Positions 1,428 to 45,263 of a stretch of 45,733 nt of DNA are shown piece after piece. The translations under genes were made by a program, and so were the position numbers. How positions within the stretch are numbered: position 1 is the stretch's first letter; the number at the start of each line of letters is the position of its first letter. The notes beneath the pieces were generated by a model. That model was not told the origin of the DNA. It saw only the letters and a list, made by a program, of their open reading frames with translations, and searched no databases. The DNA is from Thermoplasmatales archaeon ex4484_6 (GTDB taxonomy: Archaea > Thermoplasmatota > Penumbrarchaeia > Penumbrarchaeales > Penumbrarchaeaceae): NCBI GenBank assembly GCA_002254385.1, contig NJDO01000001.1:1-45733 (forward strand), read 5' to 3'.

Positions 1428-4400
1428 GTGAAGAGTTTACGATATTCCGTTCTTCTGATGGTCCTTGTTCTGGCCGCCGTCGATCTTGGTCTGCCCGCCT
1501 CATCCGATATGGTATCACATGAAAGGGGGAGCCCGGCAAGGGAGCTCTCCCCGTCCGGACCGATACGGATCGAAAGCGATACGGATTTCAACGCGACCGC
1601 TGCTGCGGAGGGATGGCCCGGTAACGGTTCTCCCGATTCACCATACATCATCGAGAACCTCGATATAGATGCGAACGGAGCCGATAATGCCGTGATGATC
1701 AGCAATACAACTTATGATTTCATCATCAGGAACTGCATAATGAGAGGGGCAGGATCGAATGGATATCGGATCGGCGCGGGTATGGGCATTCTGATCGATA
1801 ACGTTCTGAACGGAACTATCGAATCGAATGAATTCGTGGACAACCTGAATGGAGGAATATATCTTCGCAACTCCAGGAAGATGATCGTGAGGAACTGCAC
1901 GGTATCGGGGGACGAGGGATACATTGGCCTGGTCGGAGAGGCCCTGCAAGAGGTAAGGATAGAGGACTGCAGCTTCCGGCTCAGCCATGGAAACGGTATA
2001 TTCGTATCTTCCTCGTCCAGCATCATACTGAAGAACAACCATATCCCCCGGCCGCTCGAATACGGTATGAGCATCCGTTCAAGTTCGGATATGCTGCTGC
2101 AGGAGAATACTATCGGTAGTGGCGATCGTTTTTCCCTGCTTCTTTACATGGTTGTGAACAGCAGGATGTACTCGAACCGTCTTCTCGGGACCAGGTTGTC
2201 TGTCTCGATATTCCCTCCGTTCTTCGGAACACTGGAGATCCCCCCTAACAATACGGTTGACGGGGCTCCGATCTACTTCTTCAAGAACGGCGATTTCTCG
2301 GGGGAAAGGGTTCCCCTGGATGCGGGCCAGGTCATAATTCTGAACGTGACGGGGTTGGAGGTTGCCGGGCTTCGTTTTCACGGGTCCGGTAATGCAGTGA
2401 CCATTTCGTCATCATCAGGGATCCTTCTGGATTCCAATATCTATGAAGGAATTGATTCTCCCGTCTACTCGGAAGCCGTTATTATTGCCCAAACGATCGA
2501 TGGCCTTGTAATAAGGAACCAATCGATGACCGACATCGGGATTTACGGGATCGATCTGATCGAATGCAACGATGTCCGGATAGAGGAATGCATGTTCGAG
2601 AACGTATCGACTCCGATCCGGGCGTCCGGTGGTGGGAACCTTTCCGTGTGGAACAACACGATGAACGGGTCCGACCAGGGCGTTCGTCTTGAAAGGGTTG
2701 AGGATGTCCTCCTGGCTTCGAATCATGTAAAGGGATTCTCATCAGCGGGGATGTATGCAAACAGCTGCCTGAAGCTGAACGTGACCAATAACACTCTAAC
2801 TGGAGACGATAACCTTCATGACGGGTCCTCTGGTATCCGCATTGTTACATCGAAAGATATTCTCCTTTCCGAAAATACGGTGGAACGTGCTGGTAGAGGG
2901 ATCGTTATCTCGGGGGATCTTTTTATCCTCTCTTCCGGGATCCGGGTTTTCTCTAACATCATCCGGGACATGAACGGAACCGGACTGGAGATAATTATGT
3001 CGAGGGATTGCCTCGTCCGATCGAATCTGTTCTTCAATAATTCCGCCTTCGGAACGAGTCTTTCCGATGTGGAGAATGCAACAATGCTTTCGAACACCTT
3101 CATCGCGAATAATGGTGCAGGCGAGGAGTATTCCACATTGACCATACAGGCGTCCCAGCAGGGAAGCTCCTGCGTCTGGTCCGTCGATGGAAGAGGCAAT
3201 CACTGGAGCGATTGGACATCACCCGATGAGGACTTGGACGGCATAGTGGACCTCCCTTACCTCATATTCGGTTCGACCGTGTACGACGAATACCCGGTCA
3301 CGGAACCCATGTTCACATTTCTATCGGCACCCTCCTCCTTTGAGGTCCTTAGCGGAAGGGATTCCGTCGAGCTTCATTTTTCCAGGCCGGTCTTCGATCT
3401 TGATGGGTCCTTTTACGGATACCTGGTATTCAGAAGTACCGGGGAGGAGGGGAACTGGACATCCATGTTCCTCGGGTCCTCCCGAACCATGTTCCTGGAC
3501 GAGGACGTGGAGGACGGCCAGGTCTACCATTACTACATGAGAGCACTGAACAGGTACGGAGAGGGAAATAGGACCCGCATCCTAACCGCTGTACCGGATT
3601 CCTCCCCTCCCGCCGTGACCATCATTTCACCCGAAGAGGGAGCCGTGGAAGGAAATGCGGAAGTGGACGTATCCTGGAATATGACGGACAATATCGGGGT
3701 GACGGAGGTTCTCATCTCCCTGGACGGCGGTGCAATGATGGATGCGGGTTTGGGAACAAGCTTCCATCTATCGAACCTTACGGAGGGCCCCCACTCGGTT
3801 CGGATCCTTGTATTTGACGCCCTGATGAACAACGCCTCGGCCATTGTAAATTTCACGGTGGACATATCCCCTCCCGGGGTCGTCATACTGCAGCCCCGGA
3901 ACGGGACCGTTCTCAACATGACCGTGATCCATGTTCGATGGGACGGCACCGATGATGTCTCGAAAATATCCCGCTATCTCCTGAAACTTGACGACGGCCC
4001 GTGGTCCGATATGGGGAATTCCACCGAGGCCGATGTGGATGCGGGATCTCCTGGCATTCATGTTGTCCGGTTGAAGGCAGTGGACGTGGCCGGTCATGAA
4101 TACACGGCTGCGGTGGAGGTCCTCGTGGACATTGCTCCACCGGAGCTTTTCATCTCCTACCCGCCCGACGGATACAGCACGACCTCCTCGACGGTGAAGA
4201 TCTTCTGGGTGGCATATGACAGGGACAGTGCCATGGCCTCTTTCGAGCTCCGTCTCGACGGTGAGCTTGTCGGGGAGCTGCCGGCCGGTGCATCCAACCA
4301 TACCCTGACCGGTCTGACCGTGGGCAGCCATATCCTGATGTTGAGCGGTCGGGACATCGCGGGAAACATGAGGACGTCGATCATCAGCTTCGAGGTCATC

Positions 4401-7096: not shown

Positions 7097-7120
7097 TGTT
7101 TTCAATAGAGAAGGGGGGGC

Positions 7121-8045: not shown

Positions 8046-11000
8046 ATGAGGTCATGGAGTATGGTAAAGGCAGTTTCGGCATTGTCCCTGATCGTCCTCT
8101 CGTCGCTCATGATGGGGGGCATCCTGTCCGGTGAGGAGAGGGCCTTCCCACCACCGGGACACTGGGCGAAGGTATTCTTCAACGTCACCTTCGAGGATGA
8201 TTCTCCGGTTGACGGAGCCCTGATAGAGATAAAGGCCTACCATTCGTCAATGATGTACACGGAAACCGGAGTGACGAATTCCGCTGGGAAAGCGATGGTG
8301 AATGTCACCGGGGTGAACTGGGGACCCTGCTGGATACAGGTGAAGGACAGCTCCGAGGACCATTTTATCAGGTTCGACAGGTTCATCTCCCCGGATGAGG
8401 TGATATATCTCGACATCGTCCTGCCCGAACATCTTCCCTACGACAGATACATCAACGGGACACTGCGGTACCTAAATAACGGCCTTCCCGTTTCCGGCTC
8501 CATTGTGAGGATTCAGGGAGAGGATTCCATGGGACGTGCGGTCGATGAGACGGATACTACTGATGGTTCGGGGCAATTCCATCTGACCGTACCCTATTCC
8601 GCATCGGTGTATTCCCTCACGGCCCTTCCCCCGGTTCCTACAATTGACAGTTCCGAGATAGTGATACAGCTGGATCCCGCCTCGAAAGAGTATTTCTACG
8701 AACTCTATCTGCGCCCCACCCTTGTGAGGACCGTACCGATAAGCATCGGTGTCTACAACTCATCAACGATGAAGAACATGACTGGAAGCAGCTGCCGCAT
8801 CGATGGTACGGCCGTGGATAAGGACATGTCAAGAGATTACGTCAATCTTGGAAAGGATCCGGTATCCGGTCGATTTGAAGGGGATGTCATGAAAGGGAGC
8901 TACAATCTCCAGTGGGAATCCGTGGAGGACACGCATTGGAACATCTCCTATTATCTCAATACCTACATCTACGTGAACGATACCCCTTTGAATATGGACA
9001 TCCCCATGGATACGATCGAGGATCTCAGGGGAGTTCGATTGGAGATATGGAAGGATTCGGGGCCGCTCGGATACTGTCATGTCGACTATTACCATACTAT
9101 CGGATCCGAGGGTGAATCTTACACGAGTATCAACATGATGCAAACCGCAGATTCCTCGGGAAGATTGTTCTTCGGGATTCCCGCCGGGGAGGAGATACGA
9201 TTATCGGTATGGTATTATGGATACAGGGAGAGAGAGATCGTGATACCACCTGGGACCTCCTCAGAACCCGTGGAGCTCAATGTCACACTGGAGAAGAGCT
9301 CCGCCTCAACATTTCCCATGGGTAACATTTCTTTGAAGGTAATAGACGGTCTGACAGGCATCCCGGTTCCACGGGCATCGATATCCGCCAGTGCATGGGA
9401 TGAAGAGGGTTCTTATCACAGTTACTTTCGCAGTACCAATGAGTTCGGTTATTCCAATGGAACACTGGATGCCGTTACATATTCATCCGTTGATGTGAAG
9501 CATTCGCTGGGATACGCATCCGCCAAGAACGTCACGATCGCGGAAGGAGAGACAACGGTACTTACGGTCGCCCTCGAACGGTGGGAGATGCCGGAATCAT
9601 TGGATACGTATATCCTTCATCTTGCGGATCCCGAGGGGAATCCGGTCTCGGGAGTGCCCATGCGTATCAGTCCCTCCCCATCATCGGCCCTTTCAAGGTC
9701 CTGCTCGGATTCCACCGGACGGATCGTCTTTCATGGAAAGGAGGGAGAATACAACATTCATGTGGAAGCTCCCGGAGATCACTGGTTCTATTCTCCCAGG
9801 TGGCAGGAGGAGAGGACGACGTTCCACTTCCCGGCAGGAGGAGGGGACCTTGGGACCCTCACACTCTATCCATTGGACGGAATGGAAGCCGTAGAGGGAT
9901 CGGTCCTCGATTCTTCGACAATGGACCCCGTCCCCTTCGCCAATATCCATGGAGAATCCTTTCATCCGCTCGAGGGAGGTACGAGGGACATGTGCCGTGA
10001 ATATCCCTGGGCCGTGGAATTCTTTTCCGATATGGCGCAGGATCGGGGACCCGGTATAACTCTCTTCACGGACCATACCCATTCCGTTGCGGATGGATAC
10101 TACAGGGTATGGGGAAAGGAAAAGGTTTACATAAGATGCTCCACGGAGGGATACTTCCCGTACCAGGGGCTTGTTGACCTTACAACCAGGGCAGGGGATA
10201 CTAACAATATTCTGCTGGATCCGATACCTCCTGCAACAAGCCACATCGTCGGCATGATTCAGGATGAGAACGGCAATCCGATCCCGGGGACCATATATCT
10301 CATAGAACAGGATCATCCCGATAATCTTTTTGATGCTCTGGATGTGGGGGAGAACGGGACCTTCGACATCCGGCTCCATCCGGCATCGTACAGGATCATC
10401 TACGGGAACGAGACACTCCACAACGAGACATTACTGGAAGTCAACGAGAGCGGCATTGAAGATCTCATTCTACCCCTTATACCATACTCCTACATCAACG
10501 GGACCGTGACGAACGGATCGGGAGCTCCCCTCCCCGGTTTCAACGTTTCGCTTTATCCCGCAGGGGAAGCCGTTCCCCCGATCGATTCCAGGCAGACGGA
10601 CGGGAACGGGAACTTCTCGTTCCTTGCAAGGAGCGGAGATTACAGGATAGAGGTGAATGGAACGGACCAATATCTGGACCTTTCCCTGAACATTCCAGGT
10701 GTTACCGGATGGAACGACATCCATCTGGATGTGGTCCTCTACAACAGAACCTCGGGGAATGTGGAAGGTGTCGTCAGGGGAGATGGAGGCCCCCTCGAAG
10801 TGGCGGTTCCCAATGCATCCGTCATGCTGAGGAATTCCACCGGCGGCATCCTGGCAGAAACGATGACGGACTCTCTCGGCCATTTCGTTTTCAACAATGT
10901 TCAGTTCGGGAGCGGGTATTATATTATCGTGGAGCCTCCCAGTGATTGGAAGAAGACAACGGAAGGTGGCCACGGTTACCTGAACCTCACAACCGACAGG

Positions 11001-11831
11001 TTCGACCTGCACACACGGGTTCTGTTCCTCGATCTCGTCCTTGAATACATCGAGCCTCCGCTCCCCGGTTTCTTCAACGTGACCCTGCATTCTCCCGTGG
11101 GCACCGGGGTGCTGCTGGACGAGCCTGTACGATTGTCATTCTCCGATGCGGTGAACTCCTCATATCTGGAAGGGAATCTTTCCGTATCACCCCTGGTGGG
11201 AAACCTGACCTTCAGATGGAACGGGGATGGAACGGGGGTCGTGATCGACCACGATGACTTCCGGAAGAACACCACATATACCGTTACCATCTCCGGCCTG
11301 TTGACCTCTTCCTCGGGGAAGCTTCTGTGGGGCGAGGGGGATTTCAGCTGGAATTTCACAACAGGCGATGAGACCGGTGCCTGGAACCTCATCACGGCCA
11401 CGGTGGAAACCCTCTCCGACAGGACCACCTTCTTCAACGCTACCGGGGATCCGGGCCTGACGGTCCATGTGGTCATCGAGGGGAAAGGCTCGTACATGCT
11501 GGTGGAAGCCGGGGCCGGCATCTATTCCGTCGAGATACCACCCGGGGACCTTGAATGGGACACGGAATACTTCTACCATTTCTCCGATGTCATCGACGGT
11601 CCCGATCTGGCACCCGATCTGGCAGGGAGCTTCAGGACCGCGGCCCGGCCTTCGGTACAGGGAGGTGACGACGACGATGATGACACATCGAAGGAAGATG
11701 AGAGCAGCGATGCGTGGAAGATAGTCCTTTTTGTCATCCTCGTCCTGCTGATACTCGCGGTGCTCACAGCGATCTTGGTCCTGCTTGCCGCAAGGTCCGG
11801 GAAGGGCGGGTACGGAGGGGAAGAGGAATAG
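8046..11831 (+). CDS. Giant surface protein with repeated CarboxypepD_reg/Ig-like beta-sandwich domains, an SbsA/Big_5-like Ig domain, an acidic stalk and a C-terminal TM anchor
   Basis: 1261-aa ORF with an ATG at 8046. Signal peptide 'MRSWSMVKAVSALSLIVLSSLMMGGILSG'. Recurrent 'G.V.D..G.P..GA.I' strands. 'PVRLSFSDAVNSS...TYTVTISG...' is SbsA_Ig-like. Poly-Asp run 'GGDDDDDDTSKEDESSD', then 'WKIVLFVILVLLILAVLTAILVLLAA' and 'RSGKGGYGGEEE'. Confidence 0.85.
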   Translation: MRSWSMVKAVSALSLIVLSSLMMGGILSGEERAFPPPGHWAKVFFNVTFEDDSPVDGALIEIKAYHSSMMYTETGVTNSAGKAMVNVTGVNWGPCWIQVKDSSEDHFIRFDRFISPDEVIYLDIVLPEHLPYDRYINGTLRYLNNGLPVSGSIVRIQGEDSMGRAVDETDTTDGSGQFHLTVPYSASVYSLTALPPVPTIDSSEIVIQLDPASKEYFYELYLRPTLVRTVPISIGVYNSSTMKNMTGSSCRIDGTAVDKDMSRDYVNLGKDPVSGRFEGDVMKGSYNLQWESVEDTHWNISYYLNTYIYVNDTPLNMDIPMDTIEDLRGVRLEIWKDSGPLGYCHVDYYHTIGSEGESYTSINMMQTADSSGRLFFGIPAGEEIRLSVWYYGYREREIVIPPGTSSEPVELNVTLEKSSASTFPMGNISLKVIDGLTGIPVPRASISASAWDEEGSYHSYFRSTNEFGYSNGTLDAVTYSSVDVKHSLGYASAKNVTIAEGETTVLTVALERWEMPESLDTYILHLADPEGNPVSGVPMRISPSPSSALSRSCSDSTGRIVFHGKEGEYNIHVEAPGDHWFYSPRWQEERTTFHFPAGGGDLGTLTLYPLDGMEAVEGSVLDSSTMDPVPFANIHGESFHPLEGGTRDMCREYPWAVEFFSDMAQDRGPGITLFTDHTHSVADGYYRVWGKEKVYIRCSTEGYFPYQGLVDLTTRAGDTNNILLDPIPPATSHIVGMIQDENGNPIPGTIYLIEQDHPDNLFDALDVGENGTFDIRLHPASYRIIYGNETLHNETLLEVNESGIEDLILPLIPYSYINGTVTNGSGAPLPGFNVSLYPAGEAVPPIDSRQTDGNGNFSFLARSGDYRIEVNGTDQYLDLSLNIPGVTGWNDIHLDVVLYNRTSGNVEGVVRGDGGPLEVAVPNASVMLRNSTGGILAETMTDSLGHFVFNNVQFGSGYYIIVEPPSDWKKTTEGGHGYLNLTTDRFDLHTRVLFLDLVLEYIEPPLPGFFNVTLHSPVGTGVLLDEPVRLSFSDAVNSSYLEGNLSVSPLVGNLTFRWNGDGTGVVIDHDDFRKNTTYTVTISGLLTSSSGKLLWGEGDFSWNFTTGDETGAWNLITATVETLSDRTTFFNATGDPGLTVHVVIEGKGSYMLVEAGAGIYSVEIPPGDLEWDTEYFYHFSDVIDGPDLAPDLAGSFRTAARPSVQGGDDDDDDTSKEDESSDAWKIVLFVILVLLILAVLTAILVLLAARSGKGGYGGEEE

Positions 11832-11924: not shown

Positions 11925-14270
11925 TTGTTCAGCTCCCTCTCCCGAAGGTTCACACTCCTGGCACTGCTGACGACCATGGTCCTCGTAATTCCGCAGGGCT
12001 CGGCCCTTGACGTCGGGCGCATCGATCCGAGGCTGAGGACCCATGACATACCCGGAGGCTCGGTCGACCCCTATCTCGAGAAGGTCCTGGAAGGGGATCA
12101 TGAAGAGAGGATGAGGGTCCTGGTCCGGTTCAGCAGCTGGCCGATAGAGGACGATATAGGATTCGCAAGGGAGATAGGCATGGACCATCTCTGCACGATG
12201 AAGGTTCTTCCCGTGGCCTGGCTGGAAGGTACGGAGGAACAGATAAGGACCCTGTCGAACTACCGCAGGACGGAATGGATGGAGTATGACGGCGATCTGG
12301 ACCTGTTCATGGAAAGGTCCCTCACGACGATAAACGCGACAGTTGCCTGGAATTCGTGGATAGAGAGGACGCCCAACAGGTACGAGACCATTGACGGCAG
12401 CGGGATAACGGTGGTGGTCCTCGATACCGGGATAGATGCCGGTCACCCGGACCTGGACTATGGTGAGAAGACCCTTGTCAATCTGAAGGCGGACATACCG
12501 GGAGCACCATGGTATGAACTGGAGAATTCGGATACCAGTTATGGCCACGGCACCCATTGTGCGGGTACGATAGCGGGGAACGGTGACGCTTCCGCGGGGG
12601 CAAGGTCCGGGGTGGCCCCCGGAGCGAACCTGATCGGGCTGTGTGTCGGTGATGTGGGGATCACGCTGACGAACACCTACTACGGTCTGGAATGGGTTTA
12701 CGAGAATTCCCGACCCCCGAACCCGTACAACATAAAGGTTGTGTCCAACTCGTGGGGAGGGGGAGCGGCGGAATATGACCCCCAGGATGCCACTTCCCTC
12801 ATCTGCCAGAAGATAACGTTCGAGAACAACGTACTGGTGGTGTTCGCGATGGGTAACGCAGGGAGCGGGGATCATGACGGTTCCGAACTGACGGCATCGC
12901 CCACCGGTCTGATACCGTCGAATATCGGAGTGGCGGCCACAGAAAGGGATGGCTCCGGCATCGCCTATTTCTCGTCCCGGGGGGAGAAGGGAAAGAACCA
13001 CACTTATCCGGACGTTGCAGCTCCCGGGGTCAAGATATGGTCCGCCCATGCAAGATTGACGGAGATATCCGCAATGTCCAAACTTCGAGGAAATCCCAAC
13101 CCCTATTATCTGGCCATATCGGGCACCTCGATGGCGACACCCCATGTATCGGGGCTTGCCGCCCTGATGTTCCAGGCTGCTCCGTCATTGAGGATATCAG
13201 ATAGATGGGAGGATTATTCGGGGGATGATCCCGAAGCATGGTATTCGAACACTTTCAACAGGATCCATGAGATAGAATGGATAATGGAGCAGTCAGCGAG
13301 ATACATCCAGCCGGACGGCATCCCACTATCGGACGAATCGGGGGACAATGGTGTTCCCGAGCCAGGGGACAGGGGGCCAACCGAGGTGGGATGGGATGGG
13401 AAACCCATAGATTGGGCGCAGGGATACGGTCTTGTGGATGCGGAGAAATGCGTGGGGATCGCGCTGACACTGCAGGAATTGAGGGACCGATGGCCTCAGA
13501 CCGAATGGAACGTCAATGACGCGATCAGGATATACGAGGAAAGGGAGGTGTTCCACAGGTCCGCCATCACTGCCGAGACGGACATCCTCGAGACGGGATG
13601 GGAGGGCGAATTCGCGAGATATGCACAGGACCAGGACGGTCCGCTGCTCGTGCAGAACCAGTCCAGATTGATATGGATACCCGAGCATGCGGTGGAGCTT
13701 TCCATATTGATGAACTATGATCTCGTGAACATCCAGGACAGGACCGTGGGGGACCTCACATTCGTGATAGATTTCGACAATGACGGTGTGTTCGATTACC
13801 AGCATCCCTTTCTCGGATCCCGCCTGACAGGTACCAAATCCGAAACCCTGCCGATAGACAGTGAAGATACGGGAAGGTACTGGGCAATCGGCGTCTACGG
13901 CCAGGGTTTCAAGGTCATAAGGCCGCTCAAGGACAGGGAATTCATGGAGCTGAGGATAGAATACACCATGGGGCTCCGACTCAGGATGGACGTGGGATCG
14001 CAGGAGGATGTGGTGGTATCTCCCCCTCCGCCCAGTTCCCAGGTCTCCGCATGGATGCCCGGGGAGTCATCTCCCGACCATGCCGGAGGAAGACTGATTC
14101 TGGAGGGGGTCGAGTACGATATTTCAAGGGTCCAGCCGCTTCCCGAACCCGAGAAGGGGATGGAGAAGGGTGGATTCCCGTGGTGGTGGATCCTCCTGCT
14201 GGCTGCCGCTGTTCTCTTCGGTGGAGCCTTCTACCTGAGAAAAAGAAAAGGGAGGCGAAGCAGGGAATGA
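11925..14270 (+). CDS. Membrane-anchored subtilisin-like serine protease (peptidase S8), copy 1
   Basis: Catalytic triad contexts 'VVVLDTGIDAGHPDL' (D), 'HGTHCAGTIAGNG' (H) and 'GTSMATPHVSGLAA' (S), with oxyanion 'SNSWGG'. The only in-frame start after the upstream stop that retains a signal peptide is the TTG at 11925, giving 'MFSSLSRRFTLLALLTTMVLVIPQGSA'. C-terminal TM 'WWWILLLAAAVLFGGAFYL' followed by 'RKRKGRRSRE'. Confidence 0.9.
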   Translation: MFSSLSRRFTLLALLTTMVLVIPQGSALDVGRIDPRLRTHDIPGGSVDPYLEKVLEGDHEERMRVLVRFSSWPIEDDIGFAREIGMDHLCTMKVLPVAWLEGTEEQIRTLSNYRRTEWMEYDGDLDLFMERSLTTINATVAWNSWIERTPNRYETIDGSGITVVVLDTGIDAGHPDLDYGEKTLVNLKADIPGAPWYELENSDTSYGHGTHCAGTIAGNGDASAGARSGVAPGANLIGLCVGDVGITLTNTYYGLEWVYENSRPPNPYNIKVVSNSWGGGAAEYDPQDATSLICQKITFENNVLVVFAMGNAGSGDHDGSELTASPTGLIPSNIGVAATERDGSGIAYFSSRGEKGKNHTYPDVAAPGVKIWSAHARLTEISAMSKLRGNPNPYYLAISGTSMATPHVSGLAALMFQAAPSLRISDRWEDYSGDDPEAWYSNTFNRIHEIEWIMEQSARYIQPDGIPLSDESGDNGVPEPGDRGPTEVGWDGKPIDWAQGYGLVDAEKCVGIALTLQELRDRWPQTEWNVNDAIRIYEEREVFHRSAITAETDILETGWEGEFARYAQDQDGPLLVQNQSRLIWIPEHAVELSILMNYDLVNIQDRTVGDLTFVIDFDNDGVFDYQHPFLGSRLTGTKSETLPIDSEDTGRYWAIGVYGQGFKVIRPLKDREFMELRIEYTMGLRLRMDVGSQEDVVVSPPPPSSQVSAWMPGESSPDHAGGRLILEGVEYDISRVQPLPEPEKGMEKGGFPWWWILLLAAAVLFGGAFYLRKRKGRRSRE

Positions 14271-17831: not shown

Positions 17832-17832
17832 G

Positions 17833-27759: not shown

Positions 27760-27814
27760 GGAGCCAAGGAACGGGGAACGGGCTGCTAGGGATGATCGGA
27801 AGGAGGATGATACG

Positions 27815-28504: not shown

Positions 28505-28591
28505 CCCTCTTTGACAGGGGCATCTTTATAGGATTGGCAGGTATTCCACTGCCGATCCACGCCTTCGTGGTCCCGAAAGGAGGCATTCCCG

Positions 28592-29680: not shown

Positions 29681-29702
29681 GTCCGGAGGACTCGGGGGCG
29701 GG

Positions 29703-29710
29703 TTTAAATA
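29703..29710 (+). promoter_or_regulatory. TATA box TTTAAATA for the oxidoreductase gene
   Basis: 23-30 nt upstream of the ATG at 29733. Confidence 0.5.
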
Positions 29711-29732
29711 TGCAACTTCCGTTAGAGCGCCG

Positions 29733-31640: not shown

Positions 31641-34604
31641 ATGACTCGCTTCGTACCCGCAATCATAACGTCACTCGTCATAATGCTGCTTCTTCCTCCC
31701 GTCGCGGTCGGAAGGAGCTCCACCGAAGGCTCCCCTCTCGCCCTGGAGCCACTGGACGATCCGGAGCTTCCCCCCGTAGGTTTCTACAGGGGGGTGCTTC
31801 CCAATCCGCATCCCGGCCAGAGCTTCGAGGAGGTGTACGGGAACGTATCCCTCCATTCCCAGTTCGTCCCCGTTTGGGGAAAGCCATCTCCCTTCTACAA
31901 CATGTCCGACGACCTGTCCGGGAGCTGGGGATCCTATTTCGTTGACACACTGATCAGGGGAAACGGGATGTTCCCCCTAATCCACATGAATTTCTACGGG
32001 GCGGGGATGTCCCTCTCCACTCCTCCCGACCTGTCAGGAGCCGCGCTCAATGACACGTCGTGGAGGCAGAGGTACGTGGAGTCCGTGAAATCGGTGGTGA
32101 ACGCATCGAGACCCCTCTATCTATCGGTGGGGAACGAGGTGAACCGATGGTTCGAGACATACGGGCTGAACCGATCCGACGGAATGGGTTTCGAGCACTT
32201 CGTATCACTTTACAATGAGGTCTACGACTCGGTGAAATCCCTCTCACCGGGAACCATAGTCTTCTGCACCTTCGCAAGGGAAATTGTCGCGGAGCACAGG
32301 GAAGCCAACATGTCCGTTCTTTCCCTTTTCGACCCGTCAAGGCTGGACATGCTAGTACTGACGACGTATCCTTACTCCGTCCAGGGGATCAACAGCGTCT
32401 CCGACATACCCGATGATTACTATTCGTCCGCATTCGATAACATCGCTGACATGCCGTTCGGCCTGTCAGAGGCGGCATGGCCCTCGCTCTCCCAGTTCGG
32501 AGGGGAGGACGGACAGGTGAGCTTCATCGAGAACATGACGGGGAGGCTCACCCTGGACCAGGGTCTTGACATGAAGCTTCTGGGGTGGCCGTGGCTCCAC
32601 GACATAGGTCCCGCCGACGCCACCGGACTGAGGTTCAGTGACGGGACGGCGAAGAAGGCACTCTCGGCATGGAAGATGAATGACCCCCCCTCTTTCGTTC
32701 CCGGGAACAGAACAATCTCCCTGCCCGAGGATTTCGGATACTATGCCTACCCGCTGAACAATACGTTCTTCGATACCGACCCGGGGGATGAGCTCTCCTA
32801 CTTTCTGTGGAACGGGACGTCGTACACGAACCTGACCAACACCTCACTGTTCAGGGCAGAGATAAGGGGAGGCGAGCTTCTTCTTGGATCCCTGGAAAAT
32901 GTATCCGGGACCTACATGCTCCGCGTTATGGCCCGGGACAGGATGCGGGAGACCAACTGGACCTTCATTCAGGTCCGGGTCCTCGAGATCAACGATCCCC
33001 CCGCACTTCTCGATGGTCAGGGAAATGTCACATTCAACGAGGGTTTCACGCAGTTCATGGACCTGTCCCATCTCATAACCGACTGCGATGACGCGCTGTC
33101 CGAGCTCGAGATCACTGTCATTTCGGCCGAGCATCTGGTAACCATCATTCACATGACCCCGGACCCTTTCATGTACCTCTATTCGGAGGATCCGGAATGG
33201 TTCGGGGAGACCTCCCTTCTCCTTCGCGTTGTTGATACCGGCGGGGAGGGTGTCGTTCTGAACATCAGCGTGACCATACTGCCCGTGGAGGACGCTCCGG
33301 TCCTGATGATACCGAACGTGATAGACATGACCGAGGATGTCGGGAGGACATTGAACGTCTCCGCATGGTGGAGCGACCCCGACCCGGGTGAGGTCCTTGA
33401 GGTCACGGTCAATGTATCCGGCGGAAAAGTGGGACTGGAGCCCTATCTTGACATCGCGAACGGAACCATGGAACTTGTACCGGATCCGGATGTGTGGGGC
33501 ACATTTTTCCTGAATGTGACGGTTTCCGACGGCGAACTGAACACCACGGGAAGGATAGAGGTGAGGATAGAGGGTGTCAACGATCCGCCGAGAGCAGAGG
33601 ATCCGCCCCCCCTCCGACTTGTTGAGGATGAGACATACCTCTTCGATCTGGATTCCATCTCCCCGATCGACGTCGAGGGTGAAACGATATTCTTCTCCCT
33701 TGCAAACGGCTCGGATCTCATCCGTACCGTGAGCTTCCCGGAGAACGGGACCATGAAAATTGTACCGTTCCCGGACGATTTCGGGGCCGGGGAGCTCACG
33801 GTTTCCATGCGGGACGCGAGCGGGGGGATCGCATTTCTGGTATTCCATTTCAACATAACGGCCGTCAATGATCCCCCCTTTCTCATGACCCCCGAGAACT
33901 GGACCGTCTACCTGAAGAGGGGGGAGGAGAGAAGAATTGACCTTTCGGGATACCCGTTCATATTCGAGGATGTGGATGATGCCCCATCCGACCTGGTACT
34001 CCACTGCGGCAGCGGATGGTGCAGTGTCAACGGTTCATGGGTCACGATCCGCGTTCCCGAGTCAACGAACGTGAGCGATGTGAACATAAGCTTCCGGTTG
34101 GAGGACCCGTCCGGAGCGCTTTCCGAGATACGCTCCCTTCATCTTGTGGTGCTGGACCCACTCGTGGAGGGGCCGCAGCTTTCGATAGGGAACATGACGG
34201 TGGACCAGGATGGAGGGGACCTTATCGTTAGGGCGAACGGGGATGAGGGGCAGGAGATATGGGTGGTGGTAGTGCTCGGCAACGTGACCCTCTCGAGAAG
34301 GCTCGTGGAGGACGAGAACACTCCCGGTACCTATTATCTGAGGTGGAAGGACATCCCTATATCGGATGACGGGGATATCATCGTTTATCTGTCCCGGGAG
34401 GAGGGAGGAGAGAACGATTCTCCCCTGGAACCTCTGGTTTTCGGCTTCCATGCTCGTGAGATCGTGGAGGACGGAAACGGAGGCGGGTCTGATACCGGCC
34501 GGGTCTGGTTGGTGTATCTGGGCATCGCCCTACTGTTGCTGATAGTAATGTTCTTCATACTCAGATACAGGTCTCCCAGGGAGGATGTGACCTCGGAGGA
34601 GTGA
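31641..34604 (+). CDS. Membrane-anchored surface protein: clan GH-A-like (beta/alpha)8 glycosidase domain plus 5-6 cadherin-like domains plus a TM anchor
   Basis: The ATG at 31641 gives the signal peptide 'MTRFVPAIITSLVIMLLLPPVAVG'. 'LYLSVGNEVNRW' is an acid/base N-E motif and 'FGLSEAAW' is a candidate nucleophile Glu. Domain boundaries read 'INDPP', 'VEDAP' and 'VNDPP' (x2). C-terminal TM 'VWLVYLGIALLLLIVMFFIL' followed by 'RYRSPREDVTSEE'. The ORF-track extension to 31071 overlaps the opposite-strand HAD gene and I reject it. Confidence 0.85.
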   Translation: MTRFVPAIITSLVIMLLLPPVAVGRSSTEGSPLALEPLDDPELPPVGFYRGVLPNPHPGQSFEEVYGNVSLHSQFVPVWGKPSPFYNMSDDLSGSWGSYFVDTLIRGNGMFPLIHMNFYGAGMSLSTPPDLSGAALNDTSWRQRYVESVKSVVNASRPLYLSVGNEVNRWFETYGLNRSDGMGFEHFVSLYNEVYDSVKSLSPGTIVFCTFAREIVAEHREANMSVLSLFDPSRLDMLVLTTYPYSVQGINSVSDIPDDYYSSAFDNIADMPFGLSEAAWPSLSQFGGEDGQVSFIENMTGRLTLDQGLDMKLLGWPWLHDIGPADATGLRFSDGTAKKALSAWKMNDPPSFVPGNRTISLPEDFGYYAYPLNNTFFDTDPGDELSYFLWNGTSYTNLTNTSLFRAEIRGGELLLGSLENVSGTYMLRVMARDRMRETNWTFIQVRVLEINDPPALLDGQGNVTFNEGFTQFMDLSHLITDCDDALSELEITVISAEHLVTIIHMTPDPFMYLYSEDPEWFGETSLLLRVVDTGGEGVVLNISVTILPVEDAPVLMIPNVIDMTEDVGRTLNVSAWWSDPDPGEVLEVTVNVSGGKVGLEPYLDIANGTMELVPDPDVWGTFFLNVTVSDGELNTTGRIEVRIEGVNDPPRAEDPPPLRLVEDETYLFDLDSISPIDVEGETIFFSLANGSDLIRTVSFPENGTMKIVPFPDDFGAGELTVSMRDASGGIAFLVFHFNITAVNDPPFLMTPENWTVYLKRGEERRIDLSGYPFIFEDVDDAPSDLVLHCGSGWCSVNGSWVTIRVPESTNVSDVNISFRLEDPSGALSEIRSLHLVVLDPLVEGPQLSIGNMTVDQDGGDLIVRANGDEGQEIWVVVVLGNVTLSRRLVEDENTPGTYYLRWKDIPISDDGDIIVYLSREEGGENDSPLEPLVFGFHAREIVEDGNGGGSDTGRVWLVYLGIALLLLIVMFFILRYRSPREDVTSEE

Positions 34605-35576: not shown

Positions 35577-35595
35577 ATTCCATGTGGTGTGGAAT
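35577..35595 (-). terminator. Hairpin followed by a T-run downstream of gap
   Basis: ATTCCA-tgtggtg-TGGAAT. On the minus strand the stem is followed by TTTTC. It lies 10 nt after the gap stop. Confidence 0.45.
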
Positions 35596-35604
35596 ATCGT
35601 TAGA

Positions 35605-36786: not shown

Positions 36787-38001
36787 ATGACACGTTCTCC
36801 CGTTCGGCGGTCCGGAAGCAGTGTTCGCATTACGATAACCGTGTCCTTCCTCCTCGCCGTCCTCGCTTCTGTCCTGTTCCTTTGCACATCCCCCTCGGAA
36901 GGTCATGCTCCGTCGGACATGGAGCTCGAGTACGATTACGGGTCCCAGGTGCTCTCCGTTACCATCACTCACACTACACCCGCACCTTCCTCGCATTACG
37001 TGGAAACGGTGGACGTCTACCGGAACGACATCCTCGTTCTGGAAGAGCATTACGACAGTCAGCCGGATCCCAGGACGTTCACCTACGAGTACGAGGTGAC
37101 CGCGGTCGACGGGGACATTCTCAGGGTTCATGCAGAATGCAGCATTCAGGGGTCCATCGAGGATGAGATAACCGTTGAAGGACCCAGGGAATACATGTAT
37201 CTCTCCGTCAATCCCACCCCGGAGGAGGTGGAGATGGGTTCCGAACTCGATCTGACCGTCAACATCTACACCGAAGAGGATGACATGCCCCTGGATGGCG
37301 TATCCGTCATCCCCCGGGTGGATTTGGGCCTTGTTTCAGAGGTTTCCGAACTGGGCCTCGGGGGGTACGCTTTCACATATTCGGCTCCGGATCTGGAGTC
37401 GGAGGATATAGAGGTCCTTAACCTCTCATGCACGAAGAACGGTTACCATCCCCTCTATTTCGAAATATCGTTCGATCTGGTCCTTTCGATCGATGATTCG
37501 AGAAAGATAGAGATAGCAATGGACCCCTGGATCTACGGCATCGATGAGGGAGAGACGAGGGAGATCAACGTCGTGGTGACTGCAGGAGGCGAACCTCTGG
37601 ACATAGGAACGCTGGATGTGGATTATTCCAAGGGCTCCCTCGATGTTGAGAAGATCGGTGTGGGGATGTTCAGATTGACCTACGAGGCCGCTCATGTGGA
37701 TGCCGATACCTCGGCCTTCATCAGGGTCTCTGCATCAATGATTGGTTACAGGTCCGACGAGAGAAGAATGGAGTTCGTCATCAGGGACACGGGCAGCACC
37801 GGGGAGGAACCTGCGGATGGCGGGGGTCCGGCCCCTTACACATGGGGGTTGGTCGCTTTGGCGGCCGGAGCCATACTGGTCACGGCATCCCTGGTATTCC
37901 TGATATATTCAAAAAGGAAGGGCAGAGGGCCGCCCGGTGAGAAGAGAGGAGGACGTGTCTATGAGGCTGTCGAGGTGGAGGAGGTCCAGGAAGACTCCTG
38001 A
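36787..38001 (+). CDS. Secreted, TM-anchored Ig-like-domain protein of unknown function
   Basis: The ATG at 36787 lies about 27 nt downstream of the TATA-like GCTTTATC. Signal peptide 'MTRSPVRRSGSSVRITITVSFLLAVLASVLFLCTSPSEG'. Beta-rich repeats. C-terminal TM 'WGLVALAAGAILVTASLVFLIY' followed by 'SKRKGRG...VEVEEVQEDS'. Confidence 0.7.
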   Translation: MTRSPVRRSGSSVRITITVSFLLAVLASVLFLCTSPSEGHAPSDMELEYDYGSQVLSVTITHTTPAPSSHYVETVDVYRNDILVLEEHYDSQPDPRTFTYEYEVTAVDGDILRVHAECSIQGSIEDEITVEGPREYMYLSVNPTPEEVEMGSELDLTVNIYTEEDDMPLDGVSVIPRVDLGLVSEVSELGLGGYAFTYSAPDLESEDIEVLNLSCTKNGYHPLYFEISFDLVLSIDDSRKIEIAMDPWIYGIDEGETREINVVVTAGGEPLDIGTLDVDYSKGSLDVEKIGVGMFRLTYEAAHVDADTSAFIRVSASMIGYRSDERRMEFVIRDTGSTGEEPADGGGPAPYTWGLVALAAGAILVTASLVFLIYSKRKGRGPPGEKRGGRVYEAVEVEEVQEDS

Positions 38002-38075
38002 AGGATTGATCATGCAGAATATCAGCAAAGGATTAAATCGGAGATGTACGGATGTACAGATATGTGCCGTCAGGA

Positions 38076-38082
38076 GGAGGTG
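38076..38082 (+). promoter_or_regulatory. Shine-Dalgarno GGAGGTG for the 38092 giant gene
   Basis: 9-nt spacing to the ATG. A TATA-like ATTAAATC sits at 38032-38039. Confidence 0.55.
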
Positions 38083-38091
38083 TGAGAGCGG

Positions 38092-41000
38092 ATGAGAGTT
38101 CTTTCCATGATGCCAGTGGCCCTTGTCCTCGTTCTCATGTCTCAGAGCACTCTCTCCCTGGGAATTGAGAGATCCCCGGCCGTGGAGGCTCCCCTGTCCG
38201 TATGCTTCGATAATTCCCCGCTCGTGGTGGAAGAGGTCCCGATACAGATAAACAGCGACGTGGAACTCTCTGATGAGGCTTCGGAGAGAGGATGGCGCGG
38301 GAAGGGGACGGTTGACGACCCGTACATCATCAGCAACATCACCCTGGATGTCAGGGGGAAGAACAGGGGTGTGTTCATAGGGAACACAACATCCCACATT
38401 CTTGTTCTGAACTGCTCGATCACGGGTGTGCGGGATGAGGAGCAGTACAAGGGTGCAGGTCTGTGGCTGGTGAATGTTTCACATGTTACAGTGCAAAACT
38501 GCACGGTCTTCGGAAATTACAATGGTATATTTGTGGAGGATTCCAACAACGTCACATTGACCCTTTCCACGATCAGAAACAACACCCGGATAGGAATATC
38601 TTTCGGGGGCCGTGACATCTCGATATCGAACAACAGCATATCCGGAAATCCGGAGGCGGGAATTACATCCATCGCATCCAGGCGGTGCACCATATCCGGA
38701 AATCTCGTATCGGGGTCCGGTTCCGGGTTCGGGGTGATCCTCTATGTCAAGGTATCGGAGATGGAGATATCCAACAATACGGTTTTTCGAAATGCGGGAG
38801 GCATCTGCGTCAGGGGAGATATCGACCTCGAGAACGGGACCTGTGCCATGATATCGAAGAACACCGTGGTGAACAACAGCGGTATGGGAATCTATTCGAC
38901 CTATGCCGAAAGGGTGTTCATCGACGGGAACATCGTCTCCGGGAATGACAAGGGTATAGTCACAGACATCATGGGCTCCGTAACTTCCAATACGGTGTCC
39001 AATTCCACCTCGGTCGGCATATCCGGGGGAGAGAAAACCAGAATTATCCTTAATCGGGTCTTCGGTGTGGGTGGTCCCGGTATCAGTATTTTCGGGAGGT
39101 ATAATGAGGTCCTGTATAATGTGATCACGAACTGCTCCGGCAGCGGCATCAGGGCGATGGCAGGGAGCTCGAACGTGGATTTCAACGTGATATCCACGTG
39201 CGGCGGGAACGGCATCTACGTGGAATCCCGGAACGTATCCCTCTCCGGGAACCTGATGACCGGATGCCGCGGATGCGGTCTCAGCCTGTCAGGTATCGGT
39301 CACCATACCGACGGGAACGTGATCTCGGAAAACGGCGGCCCCGGGATCCATCTCATATCGGGGAATGACATCGTCCTTGAAGCCGATCATGTTTTCGAGA
39401 ACAGGGGGAAGGGGCTTTCCGTCGTTGACGCTTCCAATCTCACACTGCGCCGCGTGGACCTGCATGACAATGACGGGGCCGGGATACATGTCGTGAACGC
39501 ATCCCGGGTGGAATTCGATAACGTGTCCAGTTCCTTCAATACGGGTTCAGGCATCATCGTTGGCAACGGCACCGATGTAACATTTCGGGGATGCAGGATA
39601 TTCTCATCCGGGAACGGCATAATGGTCGGAACCGGGGGGGATCTGAATATTTTTGGTTGTTTCTTTTTCGACCTCGAGGCGGGACTCGTGATCACCCGGG
39701 CTTCCTCGCTCGAGATGTCGAGGAACATGTTCCAGGGCTGCGGTGTATACATTTCAAGTGAGAATCTCTCCTTCCTGGAAAGTGCCAGGGTTGACGGAAC
39801 GAACCTCGTGAACGGCAGGAAGCTCTATCTCGTGAACAGCTCCTATCCCGATGACAGCATTCCCGTCGATGCCGGGCAGGTCATAGTTTTCGGAAGAAGC
39901 GGCATCATGATGGAAGGATTGAACCTTTCCCATTCCACCGTGGGTCTCATGAACGCGGGTGGAAACAACATAACGGTCCGGAACAGCTCGTTCGACCGCA
40001 ACCTCGTCGGAGTGCATTTCAGCGATGTCGGCGGTTTTCGGATCCGGGGATGCAGCTTTGTCCGGACGGGGATCGGTATGGAGACCACGGATTCCCGTAA
40101 TGGTCTGGTGGAGAGATGTTCCTTCAGGGAAGGGGAGGGTCCATCGCTCATCCTCGGGAACGCGACCCGAAATGTCGAGGTTCGCCGGAACCTGTTCCTC
40201 GGTTCCGTCGGCATCACGAGTTATGCCGTGTGGGCCGGAGGAGAGAACAATGTCATCTGGAACAATCAGTTCGTATACAACAGGGGTACGCGGGATGAGA
40301 ACGTGGAGTATCTTCATCAGTCCTATGATGAGGGGAACAACACCTGGTACCTGAACGGGACCGGTAACTACTGGAGGGATCTACATTGTCCGGATATCGA
40401 CGGGGACGGGCTGGTTGAAGCTGTCTATGCTATCGAAGGGCCCGAGATGAGATGGGACCTCTACCCCCTGTCGAGAAGTCCGCTGTTCGAACCTCCGTCA
40501 TTGAGGGTTCAGCCGCTGTCGGATTCCGGATCCGTGCTCCTGTCCTGGGAGAAGCCTGATCTCGAGGGATGGGCGGAGCTCAGGGGATACGGAATATACC
40601 GGATTGTGAACTTCTCCGATCCAGAGCTCATCTTCATCCCGGGGGGCGATTCGACGTCCTATCTGGATGATGAGGTGGAACCCGGGGTGACCTACGGATA
40701 TTCAATCTTTGCAAACAACAGTCTGGTAACTGGTGATAGATCTACTTACATCTCGGTCATGCTGGATACGTTTCCCCCCGATGTGCGGGTCATCTCCCCG
40801 GGTGACGGTGTGGTCATCGGTTCCGACACGGTTCTGGTGGAATGGGTGGGTTTCGACAACGAGAGCGACATCGATCATTACGAGCTGAGATTGGACTTCG
40901 GGGAGTGGTTGAGCAAGGGTCTCCTGACCGAGCATCGGTTCTTCGATCTCGGCGAGGGGATGCACACCATCGAACTGAGGGCCACCGATACGGCGGGACA

Positions 41001-42477
41001 TATCGGCCTGGCGGAATCGAGATTTATCGTGGACATGTCCCCCCCGGCACTTTCGATAATCGAACCGGTGGAGGGACAGCTGCTCTCCTCCAACTGGACC
41101 GAGGTAAGGTGGAATGCCCTTGACGACATCTCCGCCGTGGATCACATCGAATACGATCTGGATGAAAGGGGCCCCGTACCGGCAACCGCCGCGGGGTCGG
41201 TGATGCTCACCGGGCTCTCCGAGGGTCCTCACGAGGTGGAGGTGACCGCCTATGACCTTGCCTCCAATTCAGTCAGCCTGCGTGTAGGTTTCATCGTGGA
41301 TACGGTATCCCCCGTGGTCGAGGTGACGTCACCCGCCGGGGGGGAGATTCTCGGCGTATCCGATGTCATCGTATCCTGGAATGGTTACGATACGGGCACT
41401 GGAATGTTCGGATACCGCTTCAGGCTGGACGATCAGGGATGGATAGATGTGGGTCTTTCACTGGAAAGGAGGCTGTATCAGCTGGACAACGGCCCCCATG
41501 TTGTGAGGATAGCGGCGGTTGACCTTGCCGGGAATACGAACGAGTCCCGGCTTCGGTTCATGATAGACGCACAACCCCCGGTGGTGGTCATCACCTATCC
41601 TGCCGACGGTTCCCATGTTTCCGTTTCCCCTGTCACGGTTATCTGGACCGTGGAGGATGACATCTCCGGGATCAGCGGAGTCTACTTCAGGAAGGGGGAT
41701 GACGATTACGTGAAGGTCGCCTCCGACCGCTATATAATGTCGGGCCTCGGAGAGGGGCGCCATACCATCTATCTGAAAGTGGAGGACGGTGCCGGGAACC
41801 GCAAAGTGGTCTCATCGACATTCACTGTCGATAGGACACCTCCGGGGGTCCTTGGTTTCGGTCCGGTGGGAGAGGACGAGGATATCGATACGACAATCTT
41901 TGCCTACTTCTCGGAGAGGATGGCCCCCTCGAGTCTTGTTCTTGAATTGGAAGGCGTACAGGGAAATGTGGTCTGGAAGGGGGGCAGGGTGGTGTTCGAA
42001 CCTGCAGCTCCCCTCGAACCGGGCAGGGTCTACAACGTGAGCCTCAGGGGACAGGACCTTGCGGGGAATCCCCTGACACCGGTGACATGGAGCTTCAGGA
42101 CCACAACGATGGGGAGGATAAAGGGCAGGGCCGTCGATGAGAGAGGAGTCCCCGTACCCGATGCGGAGCTGATAATGGGAGATGCAAGGGCATCCTCCCG
42201 GCCCGACGGCAGTTTTTTCATGGAGGCCGGTGAAGGAATACACGAGCTGAAGGTGAAGAAGGGCGGTTACAAAACGGCTTCGCTCGAGGTGAACGTCACT
42301 GCGGGCATTCTGATCGACATCGGAACGGTTCACATGGAAAGGGAGGATGACCGCGGAGTGAACCTTCTTGCCATTCTCCTGGTACCTGCAGCCATACTGA
42401 TGATGGTATTGATAGCGGCCGTCATGGGCTCGCTGATAACCAGATACACGATGAACCCGGAGCAGGAGGAAGAGTGA
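38092..42477 (+). CDS. Giant surface protein, paralogue of 1428-4826: beta-helix (NosD/PbH1), Fn3-like domain, 4+1 Ig-like modules, CarboxypepD_reg-like domain, TM anchor
   Basis: 1461 aa. The SD GGAGGTG (38076-38082) lies 9 nt upstream of the ATG. Signal peptide 'MRVLSMMPVALVLVLMSQSTLSLG'. 'GTVDDPYIISNITLD' parallels 'GSPDSPYIIENLDID' in the paralogue, and 'GNYWRDLHCPDIDGDGLVEAVY' parallels 'GNHWSDWTSPDEDLDGIVDLPY'. 'GRIKGRAVDERGVPVPDAEL' is CarboxypepD_reg-like. TM 'LLAILLVPAAILMMVLIAAVMGSLI' followed by 'TRYTMNPEQEEE'. Confidence 0.85.
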   Translation: MRVLSMMPVALVLVLMSQSTLSLGIERSPAVEAPLSVCFDNSPLVVEEVPIQINSDVELSDEASERGWRGKGTVDDPYIISNITLDVRGKNRGVFIGNTTSHILVLNCSITGVRDEEQYKGAGLWLVNVSHVTVQNCTVFGNYNGIFVEDSNNVTLTLSTIRNNTRIGISFGGRDISISNNSISGNPEAGITSIASRRCTISGNLVSGSGSGFGVILYVKVSEMEISNNTVFRNAGGICVRGDIDLENGTCAMISKNTVVNNSGMGIYSTYAERVFIDGNIVSGNDKGIVTDIMGSVTSNTVSNSTSVGISGGEKTRIILNRVFGVGGPGISIFGRYNEVLYNVITNCSGSGIRAMAGSSNVDFNVISTCGGNGIYVESRNVSLSGNLMTGCRGCGLSLSGIGHHTDGNVISENGGPGIHLISGNDIVLEADHVFENRGKGLSVVDASNLTLRRVDLHDNDGAGIHVVNASRVEFDNVSSSFNTGSGIIVGNGTDVTFRGCRIFSSGNGIMVGTGGDLNIFGCFFFDLEAGLVITRASSLEMSRNMFQGCGVYISSENLSFLESARVDGTNLVNGRKLYLVNSSYPDDSIPVDAGQVIVFGRSGIMMEGLNLSHSTVGLMNAGGNNITVRNSSFDRNLVGVHFSDVGGFRIRGCSFVRTGIGMETTDSRNGLVERCSFREGEGPSLILGNATRNVEVRRNLFLGSVGITSYAVWAGGENNVIWNNQFVYNRGTRDENVEYLHQSYDEGNNTWYLNGTGNYWRDLHCPDIDGDGLVEAVYAIEGPEMRWDLYPLSRSPLFEPPSLRVQPLSDSGSVLLSWEKPDLEGWAELRGYGIYRIVNFSDPELIFIPGGDSTSYLDDEVEPGVTYGYSIFANNSLVTGDRSTYISVMLDTFPPDVRVISPGDGVVIGSDTVLVEWVGFDNESDIDHYELRLDFGEWLSKGLLTEHRFFDLGEGMHTIELRATDTAGHIGLAESRFIVDMSPPALSIIEPVEGQLLSSNWTEVRWNALDDISAVDHIEYDLDERGPVPATAAGSVMLTGLSEGPHEVEVTAYDLASNSVSLRVGFIVDTVSPVVEVTSPAGGEILGVSDVIVSWNGYDTGTGMFGYRFRLDDQGWIDVGLSLERRLYQLDNGPHVVRIAAVDLAGNTNESRLRFMIDAQPPVVVITYPADGSHVSVSPVTVIWTVEDDISGISGVYFRKGDDDYVKVASDRYIMSGLGEGRHTIYLKVEDGAGNRKVVSSTFTVDRTPPGVLGFGPVGEDEDIDTTIFAYFSERMAPSSLVLELEGVQGNVVWKGGRVVFEPAAPLEPGRVYNVSLRGQDLAGNPLTPVTWSFRTTTMGRIKGRAVDERGVPVPDAELIMGDARASSRPDGSFFMEAGEGIHELKVKKGGYKTASLEVNVTAGILIDIGTVHMEREDDRGVNLLAILLVPAAILMMVLIAAVMGSLITRYTMNPEQEEE
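40768..41832 (+). repeat. Four tandem ~88-89-aa Ig-like modules (coding repeats), followed by a fifth divergent SbsA-like module extending to about 42102
   Basis: Residues 893-981, 982-1070, 1071-1159 and 1160-1247 each start x-x-P-P-x-V/L and end F-I/M/T-V/I-D. They share the internal pattern of the three modules at 3600-4397. Confidence 0.7.
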
Positions 42478-42482
42478 TCGTC

Positions 42483-45263: not shown

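Follow-up and report, generated by a model that had tools for sequence, protein, structure and literature searches.

The longest contig of a metagenome-assembled genome (MAG) of the Thermoplasmatales archaeon ex4484_6 (NJDO01000001.1, assembly GCA_002254385.1), taken here from end to end as a window of 45,733 nucleotides (nt), encodes nine surface proteins for which an initial annotation had proposed one common C-terminal anchor design. The nine open reading frames (ORFs) are all present, sum to 27,498 nt and fill 60% of the window. Five of their products (ending in EYEE, GGEEE, TSEE, EQEEE and WGEE) close exactly with -Glu-Glu-COOH, and it is this terminal dipeptide, called EE below, that concerns us here. 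The source MAG measures 1.83 Mb in 140 contigs and is 69% complete.

Nine anchored surface proteins and their tails

Genes were called with a simple codon-usage caller, which yielded 1469 genes for the source genome (coding density 90%) and reproduced the genes of the window. Signal peptides and helices were assigned with a Kyte–Doolittle hydropathy heuristic rather than with SignalP or DeepTMHMM, and the domain content of the nine proteins with Pfam. Each protein, with its length in amino acids (aa), is designated by the first position of its gene; sequons are N-x-S/T.

1428..4826, + strand: 1132 aa, beta-helix/NosD + Big_7 + CarboxypepD_reg, EE class; helix nt 4722-4781, tail RSRSRSRKRREYEE nt 4782-4823, ends EYEE; 29 sequons
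8046..11831, + strand: 1261 aa, CarboxypepD_reg/Big-domain surface protein, EE class; helix nt 11721-11792, tail RSGKGGYGGEEE nt 11793-11828, ends GGEEE; 31 sequons
11925..14270, + strand: 781 aa, membrane-anchored subtilase (Peptidase_S8), non-EE; tail RKRKGRRSRE; 3 sequons
14267..16585, + strand: 772 aa, second membrane-anchored subtilase, non-EE; tail HRIRKRNRKGGES, ending GGES; 5 sequons
19525..23826, + strand: 1433 aa, beta-helix/PKD/cadherin-like surface protein, long-tail class; helix nt 23248-23316, then a 169-aa cytoplasmic tail rich in Pro, Gln and Glu, nt 23317-23823
31641..34604, + strand: 987 aa, cadherin-like/Big_9 surface protein, EE class; helix nt 34503-34562, tail RYRSPREDVTSEE nt 34563-34601, ends TSEE
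36787..38001, + strand: 404 aa, anchored protein with no Pfam match, non-EE; 29-aa tail ending QEDS; 1 sequon
38092..42477, + strand: 1461 aa, beta-helix/NosD + fn3 + Big + CarboxypepD_reg, EE class; helix nt 42364-42441, tail RYTMNPEQEEE nt 42442-42474
42483..45263, − strand: 926 aa, CARDB/Ig-like surface protein, EE class; helix nt 42528-42617, tail RNRDEEEAEDWGEE nt 42486-42527, ends WGEE

By the hydropathy heuristic all nine begin, as first annotated, with a signal peptide, in which a basic n-region is accompanied by at least 10 uncharged hydrophobic residues in a row. The shared C-terminal arrangement stands only in part. A single hydrophobic helix of 20–30 aa followed directly by Arg/Lys residues is found in 9/9, but the 19525 tail extends for 169 aa, the subtilases end in RSRE and GGES, the 36787 protein ends in QEDS and only five carry EE. 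Instead of one anchor design we distinguish three tail classes, each kept within orthologue groups: short tails with EE, short tails that have R/K and nothing more, as in the subtilases, and long tails rich in Pro, Gln and Glu (19525). Orthologues of the 1428 protein in the relatives G001, G003 and G009 (~30% identity) all end in EE, and that of the 42483 protein in G012 (34% identity) ends in VWTEE. The orthologues of the 11925 subtilase (65–70% identity) have KK, GK or GV ends and EE in no case, those of the 19525 protein in G007 and G013 retain the long P/E/Q tail, and the 36787 orthologue in G012 ends in REEAL.

The two subtilase genes share an ATGA stop/start overlap (window 14267-14270), which suggests that their translation may be coupled; their products have few sequons (3 and 5) compared with 29–33 in the EE-class neighbours. 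The 38092 and 42483 genes are convergent with 5 nt between their stop codons (window 42466-42491: GAGGAAGAGTGA tcgtc TCACTCCTC), and their EE-stop ends make a 6-bp inverted repeat, GAGTGA-5 nt-TCACTC.

Much of the anchor is generic. The combination of a linker, a single helix and an R/K stop-transfer cluster is ordinary type-I anchoring. Two further elements had been taken as parts of the design, namely an acidic stretch before the helix and a Trp at the membrane boundary. The first is hardly more acidic than the ectodomains (D+E 0.18 vs 0.15) and the second is seen in 26% of anchors, compared with 13% expected from composition and 19% at the helix starts of multi-pass proteins; both effects are weak and neither is specific to these anchors. 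All nine proteins fit the general scheme of archaeal C-terminal transmembrane anchoring (PMC3387779), with a signal peptide, a large ectodomain, a linker rich in Ser, Thr, Gly and acidic residues, one helix and a positive-inside cluster; where that article treats C-terminal transmembrane anchors, it mentions no terminal dipeptide. Tail-anchored proteins of the Get3 type are ruled out by the signal peptides and the sequon-rich ectodomains. The proteins are not lipoproteins by their N-termini either, in agreement with the initial annotation, as none has an [LVI][ASTVI][GAS]-Cys box and the sole Cys after an h-region, in the 36787 protein (LFLC), is preceded by Leu.

Genome-wide, 92–93 proteins have a single C-terminal helix and a tail of at most 60–70 aa, and 12% of the genome is taken up by their genes. 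Such short-tailed anchored proteins are over-represented in the window (8/28 genes, vs 93/1469 genome-wide; hypergeometric p = 2e-4), and genes for anchored proteins tend to adjoin one another (20% vs a 6% background). Long ORFs are altogether frequent, the 139 of at least 800 aa representing 26% of the assembled genome. Fifty-two bitopic giants have cytoplasmic tails of more than 70 aa that are rich in Pro, Gln and Glu. Examples of giants with such or other notable tails are found on contigs C94 (1474 aa) and C51 (865 aa).

Terminal Glu-Glu in the source genome and in relatives

EE ends occur in 20/93 anchored proteins of the source genome, while shuffling of the tails yields 1.5 ± 1.2 (maximum 7 in 5000 runs). 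Compared with the rest of the proteome the dipeptide is found in 19/92 anchored proteins vs 24/1295 others (1.9%, several of these 24 being anchored too), corresponding to a Fisher odds ratio of 13.8 (p = 1.4e-12). The enrichment is confined to the very end: Glu has a frequency of 0.29 at position −1 and 0.27 at −2, and drops to ~0.10 at −3 to −5, as in other proteins. At the last position Glu outnumbers Asp by 29 to 7. The EE tails have a median length of 14 aa and leave position −3 free; their first six residues are 40% R+K, Gly, Ser, Pro and acidic residues abound in their middle part, and several end in EEE or EEEE. The 20 proteins fall into 10 homology clusters over their full length, 16 over the last 150 aa and 19 over the last 60 aa, which rules out the spread of one paralogous tail. 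The acidic C-terminus that had been proposed as a signal thus gains strong statistical and evolutionary support once it is narrowed to the last two residues, while the choice between sorting, retention and docking remains a matter of interpretation. The possibility, raised at the outset, that the tails are no different from generic type-I anchors is right for pre-helix acidity, Trp and the R/K cluster, but the terminal EE lies far above chance.

The presence of EE depends on the size of the protein and on the length of its tail. Among anchored proteins it is found in 19/41 of those with at least 800 aa and in 1/52 of the smaller ones; among bitopic proteins of at least 800 aa it is found in 17/26 with tails of up to 35 aa, 2/15 with tails of 36–70 aa and 2/52 with tails above 70 aa. 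In two EE tails of ~50 aa a zinc ribbon (CPxCG...CxxC) precedes the dipeptide. EE proteins are also the richer in sequons, with 2.4 per 100 aa vs 1.1 in anchored proteins without EE (p = 5e-12), and the difference persists when proteins of at least 800 aa only are compared (2.4 vs 1.47, p = 6e-6). EE marks the large, sequon-rich, presumably N-glycosylated coat proteins, while enzymes, small anchored proteins and long-tailed giants are without it.

Glycosylation of these proteins had been suspected from the beginning, and the count of eight sequons among residues 1–190 of the 38092 protein is exact. Anchored proteins contain 1.49 sequons per 100 aa, which exceeds the expectation from their own composition 2.3-fold, compared with 0.30 in soluble proteins, and a gene for the oligosaccharyltransferase AglB/STT3 is present; they are thus likely glycoproteins. 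The AglB/STT3 sequence lies within a 2533-aa ORF on contig C117 of the source genome (− strand, ~nt 13357-20958 in strand orientation). This ORF combines an N-terminal multi-pass STT3 domain with an ectodomain of ~1900 aa, a C-terminal helix and the tail YKQRTEPI, which has no EE.

For comparison, ~2 Mb of regions from 20 genomes of relatives were run through the same gene and helix pipeline. The class is represented in the genome collection by 37 species genomes, of which 24 (the source MAG included) belong to its own family (f1), two to a sister family (f2) of the same order and 11 to seven other families. EE ends among proteins of at least 800 aa with tails of up to 35 aa were distributed as follows.

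Source genome: 17/26
Same genus: 9/14
Family f1 outside this genus: 13/13
Sister family f2: 5/10
Six other families of the class: 0/2

The sampled relatives of the same order thus have EE in 27/37 of their short-tailed giants. If tails of any length are counted, none of the 35 giant bitopic proteins sampled from the six other families ends in EE; these giants have long cytoplasmic tails (median 138 aa) that are very acidic or Pro-rich, some with zinc ribbons.

Orthologues mostly share the state of the C-terminus. In reciprocal-best-hit pairs across genomes, in which ectodomain identity is 25–45% and the tails differ in length and sequence, 22 are EE/EE, 20 non-EE/non-EE and only two discordant (42/44 concordant). 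Seven orthologue groups are entirely EE, 15 have no EE, and one, the group of the 38092 protein, is mixed (8/9 EE). The clearest case is the 31641 protein: in seven genera of the family 22/22 of its orthologues have the EE end, as has one sister-family homologue, with tails of 8–22 aa whose sequence varies from KRKTPPEE to SRNRKAKVSDFDYGSLLEE. Complete full-length orthologues in the database (39–51% identity) have EE in 27/29, the other two ending in ME. Among the short-tailed homologues of the 38092 protein in a database of 5.8 billion proteins only 3/46 have EE; named homologues from Methanomassiliicoccales and Aciduliprofundum have plain R/K ends. Across the 22 orthologues EE is conserved while the synonymous codons are free, which indicates selection on the protein rather than on the nucleotides. 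What is under selection is the identity and the terminal position of two residues, in one functional class of surface proteins and in one order.

The initial annotation had held that the anchors are not of the PGF-CTERM/archaeosortase kind, and this is borne out. PGF-CTERM (PF18204) has no match in the source genome and 20 relatives, while the control genomes of Haloferax and Methanosarcina were matched. The archaeosortase/exosortase family (PF09721) is found in 0/26 genomes of the order (completeness 90–97% for several), compared with 9/11 elsewhere in the class. None of the NCBIfam sorting-domain models (LPXTG, Loki-CTERM, PGAP-CTERM, Synerg-CTERM and others) scored above its curated cut-off on the tails; the best scores below it, 14.6–14.7 for LPXTG_anchor (cut-off 15.9) and 13.5 for Loki-CTERM (cut-off 19.9), cover the helix and the basic cluster only. 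Among the genomes sampled, the EE motif is confined to one order, the same one that is without an archaeosortase match.

Genomic surroundings and lineage

GC content is uniform along the whole window, and the part from 31641 to 45263 is syntenic with G012, a relative at family level. Because of this even composition and conserved gene order, the window is a stable chromosomal neighbourhood of an uncultured Thermoplasmatota archaeon and no mobile island. Its many Sec-exported type-I surface proteins comprise adhesin-like giants with beta-helix and Ig folds, the two subtilases and the small 36787 protein. A Thermoplasmatota-like lineage had been guessed before the origin of the DNA was known; the archaeal-type GAPDH of the window agrees, its closest relatives coming from uncultured Thermoplasmatota/Thermoplasmatales MAGs (78–81% identity), followed at a distance by Methanomassiliicoccales (~58–61%).

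Between the nine surface-protein genes lie housekeeping and regulatory genes, encoding ribosomal protein L15e, a PD-(D/E)XK/Cas4-like membrane protein, a histidine ammonia-lyase-type enzyme, a biotin ligase, a CBS protein, an amidohydrolase, the archaeal GAPDH, a KaiC-like ATPase, helix-turn-helix regulators and an EamA transporter. A KaiC-like ATPase is found near EE genes in three genomes, an association too weak to use. The Cas4-like match concerns the C-terminal part of a 502-aa ORF (5597-7105, − strand), which corresponds to PD-(D/E)XK/Cas4 nuclease models; the annotated genes of the window include no CRISPR-Cas system. The glycan-synthesis genes reported among the surface genes are indeed there:

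338..1030, + strand: GT2 glycosyltransferase, syntenic with a 1428-type gene in four genomes
26845..30833, + strand: sugar-nucleotide module, including a weak GT4-like match
27815-28504, + strand: hexapeptide acetyltransferase of this module
28592-29680, + strand: DegT aminotransferase of this module
29733-30833, + strand: Gfo/Idh/MocA oxidoreductase of this module

Possible roles of the terminal Glu-Glu

We lean, with modest confidence, towards EE being a cytoplasmic recognition tag of the glycoprotein coat. A cytoplasmic or membrane-peripheral partner would bind the free C-terminal EE and would sort, retain, cluster or dock the proteins that carry it; in this order such a role may replace the processing of surface proteins by an archaeosortase-type enzyme. 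Since a free C-terminus is needed and there is little other constraint on the sequence, recognition by a pocket or an active site fits better than a bulk physico-chemical effect.

A number of points weigh against a recognition tag. No reader has been found: analysis of the neighbours of EE genes gave syntenic housekeeping genes only (GT2, L15e, GAPDH), and searches of the class genomes for CAP-Gly, TTL and MATCAP were empty, with the controls silent as well. Two residues carry little information, they lie anywhere between 8 and ~50 aa away from the membrane, and about one third of the short-tailed giants in the source genome do without them. The regions sampled from relatives lie mostly around beta-helix genes, and signal peptides, helices and gene calls all rest on simple heuristics. 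The relatives are moreover kin, and the gain of EE and the loss of archaeosortase may each be a single event; the contrasts between clades are accordingly suggestive rather than statistics. The evidence for the proposed tag comes from sequence.

The dipeptide might alternatively fulfil a self-contained physico-chemical role that requires no reader, the terminal carboxylate and two Glu residues capping the basic tail so as to balance the R/K cluster, hold the end away from the anionic membrane surface or, as an anti-degron, shield the exposed C-terminus against membrane-proximal proteases. Such a minimal motif of two residues with no preference at −3 would suit a cap, as would the R/K-rich segment that always precedes EE. 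The long, very acidic tails outside the order likewise make acidic ends in the cytoplasm a trait found more widely in the class, and in bacteria charged C-termini prevent several tail-specific proteases from recognising their substrates. However, a cap would be expected on small anchored proteins and subtilases too, and EE occurs on only one of the 52 proteins below 800 aa, while its absence is conserved among the subtilase orthologues, a point against any cap that would serve short tails in general. Asp, which should serve as well, is hardly used at the last position, and homologous anchors of other lineages manage with R/K alone. On balance a cap seems unlikely to us, though by no means far-fetched.

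EE could also be the substrate tag of a C-terminal modifying enzyme that adds or trims Glu residues, as in RimK/S6-like or rlo-like ATP-grasp cassettes. RimK substrates end in Glu-Glu, and several of the present tails end in EEE or EEEE. Bacterial glutamate-tail systems with membrane partners do exist: the rlo operon of Pseudomonas aeruginosa links a membrane protein with an ATP-grasp enzyme and with a peptidase that cleaves Glu-rich sequences (PMC12239564). The likeness to both RimK/S6 and rlo lies in the Glu-Glu ends, but in the genomes studied here no ligase or peptidase matches the distribution of EE. The strong RimK-type matches in relatives are LysX proteins inside LysW lysine/arginine clusters; RimK-type matches occur in EE-negative families but not in the EE-positive G001, G002, G013 and G014. 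The other ATP-grasp match that was checked is a single-chain acetyl-CoA carboxylase. MATCAP/DUF1704 (21 genomes) and TTL were unmatched, in the control genomes too. We regard an enzyme substrate as improbable.

Two of the proteins met in this search deserve a separate mention. A LysW-type cluster (L122:9725-15897, G007:C5) encodes LysX together with a 70-aa zinc-ribbon LysW ending in EEQEDWGE; the resemblance of the 42483 end, AEDWGEE, to this sequence is probably a coincidence. The acetyl-CoA carboxylase is of the eukaryotic single-chain type, with 2145 aa comprising biotin carboxylase, BCCP, ACC_central and carboxyltransferase (L100:3099-9536, − strand, equivalent to G001:C132:16098-22535). 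Similar ORFs of ~2100 aa occur in G002, G003, G005, G007 and G012, among the side matches of the RimK model only in this family; the Pfam check concerns the G001 copy alone.

It is very improbable that there is nothing to explain, in the sense that these are ordinary positive-inside anchors on which EE results from a Glu-rich composition, a paralogous tail or chance. With 7.8% Glu and 6.7% Asp the proteome is fairly acidic, the tails are Glu-rich (11.8%) and Ig-like modules are common to many surface proteins, but composition accounts for 1.5 of the 20 EE ends, the enrichment is restricted to the last two positions, and EE has been kept in all 22 orthologues of the 31641 protein despite the drift of their tails. 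We give scarcely any credit to a signal at the nucleotide level, in which GAGGAR plus the stop codon would act as a Shine–Dalgarno-like or terminator element with EE as its by-product: the −2 codon is GAG in 19/20 cases in the source genome, TAG stops are somewhat enriched (8/20 vs 17% genome-wide) and the convergent EE genes form the short inverted repeat described above, but in relatives the −2 codon (GAG 22 : GAA 11) follows genome usage and stop codons are at background, a preference for GAA at −1 is seen in all genes whose products end in Glu (97:50), downstream contexts vary (convergent, divergent, long spacers) and EE tracks the type of protein and not the position in an operon.

A cytoplasmic recognition tag, the reading that we prefer, can be set beside known systems. 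Like EE, the signatures of PGF-CTERM/archaeosortase A, PEP-CTERM/exosortase, LPXTG/sortase, GlyGly-CTERM/rhombosortase and MYXO-CTERM/myxosortase are short, C-terminal, built around a helix and a basic cluster, shared by dozens of unrelated secreted proteins in a genome and restricted to certain lineages. In those systems the signature lies outside, just before the helix, and helix and tail are cleaved off by a dedicated enzyme. The EE proteins, in contrast, have nothing conserved before the helix, constraint falls instead on the final two residues inside the cell, and an archaeosortase is found in 0/26 genomes of the order. To our knowledge, every described prokaryotic C-terminal sorting signal lies on the external face of the membrane and is removed by cleavage. 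EE also resembles, in logic only, the KKXX motif in the tails of eukaryotic type-I proteins and the ligands of the readers of free C-termini, the TPR carboxylate clamp (EEVD) and CAP-Gly (EEY/F), where a very short motif at a free cytosolic C-terminus is read by a soluble partner. Unlike the archaeal EE, these belong to eukaryotic trafficking or to the cytoskeleton. A full-text search of the literature gave no account of an archaeal anchor ending in EE, and the tail tag is apparently previously undescribed.

A more specific proposal, which we make tentatively as a serious possibility that stops short of being probable, is that EE is the address label of a novel archaeal system, in which a cytosolic or membrane-peripheral reader would bind the free EE end of some 40–60 giant glycoproteins in each cell so as to sort them, cluster them or tether them, and which would have arisen in one order with the loss of archaeosortase-type processing. 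If so, EE would be a prokaryotic counterpart of the cytosolic-tail sorting motifs of eukaryotes. Little is understood of how archaea that have no classical wall organise and retain their surface proteins and how they turn them over, and a tag at the inner end of dozens of unrelated giants, conserved throughout an order and with a distribution complementary to that of archaeosortase, points to communication between the coat and the cytoplasm. A helix followed by a short R/K tail and EE-stop also provides a searchable criterion that may predict the coat proteome of uncultured sediment- and soil-associated Thermoplasmatota.

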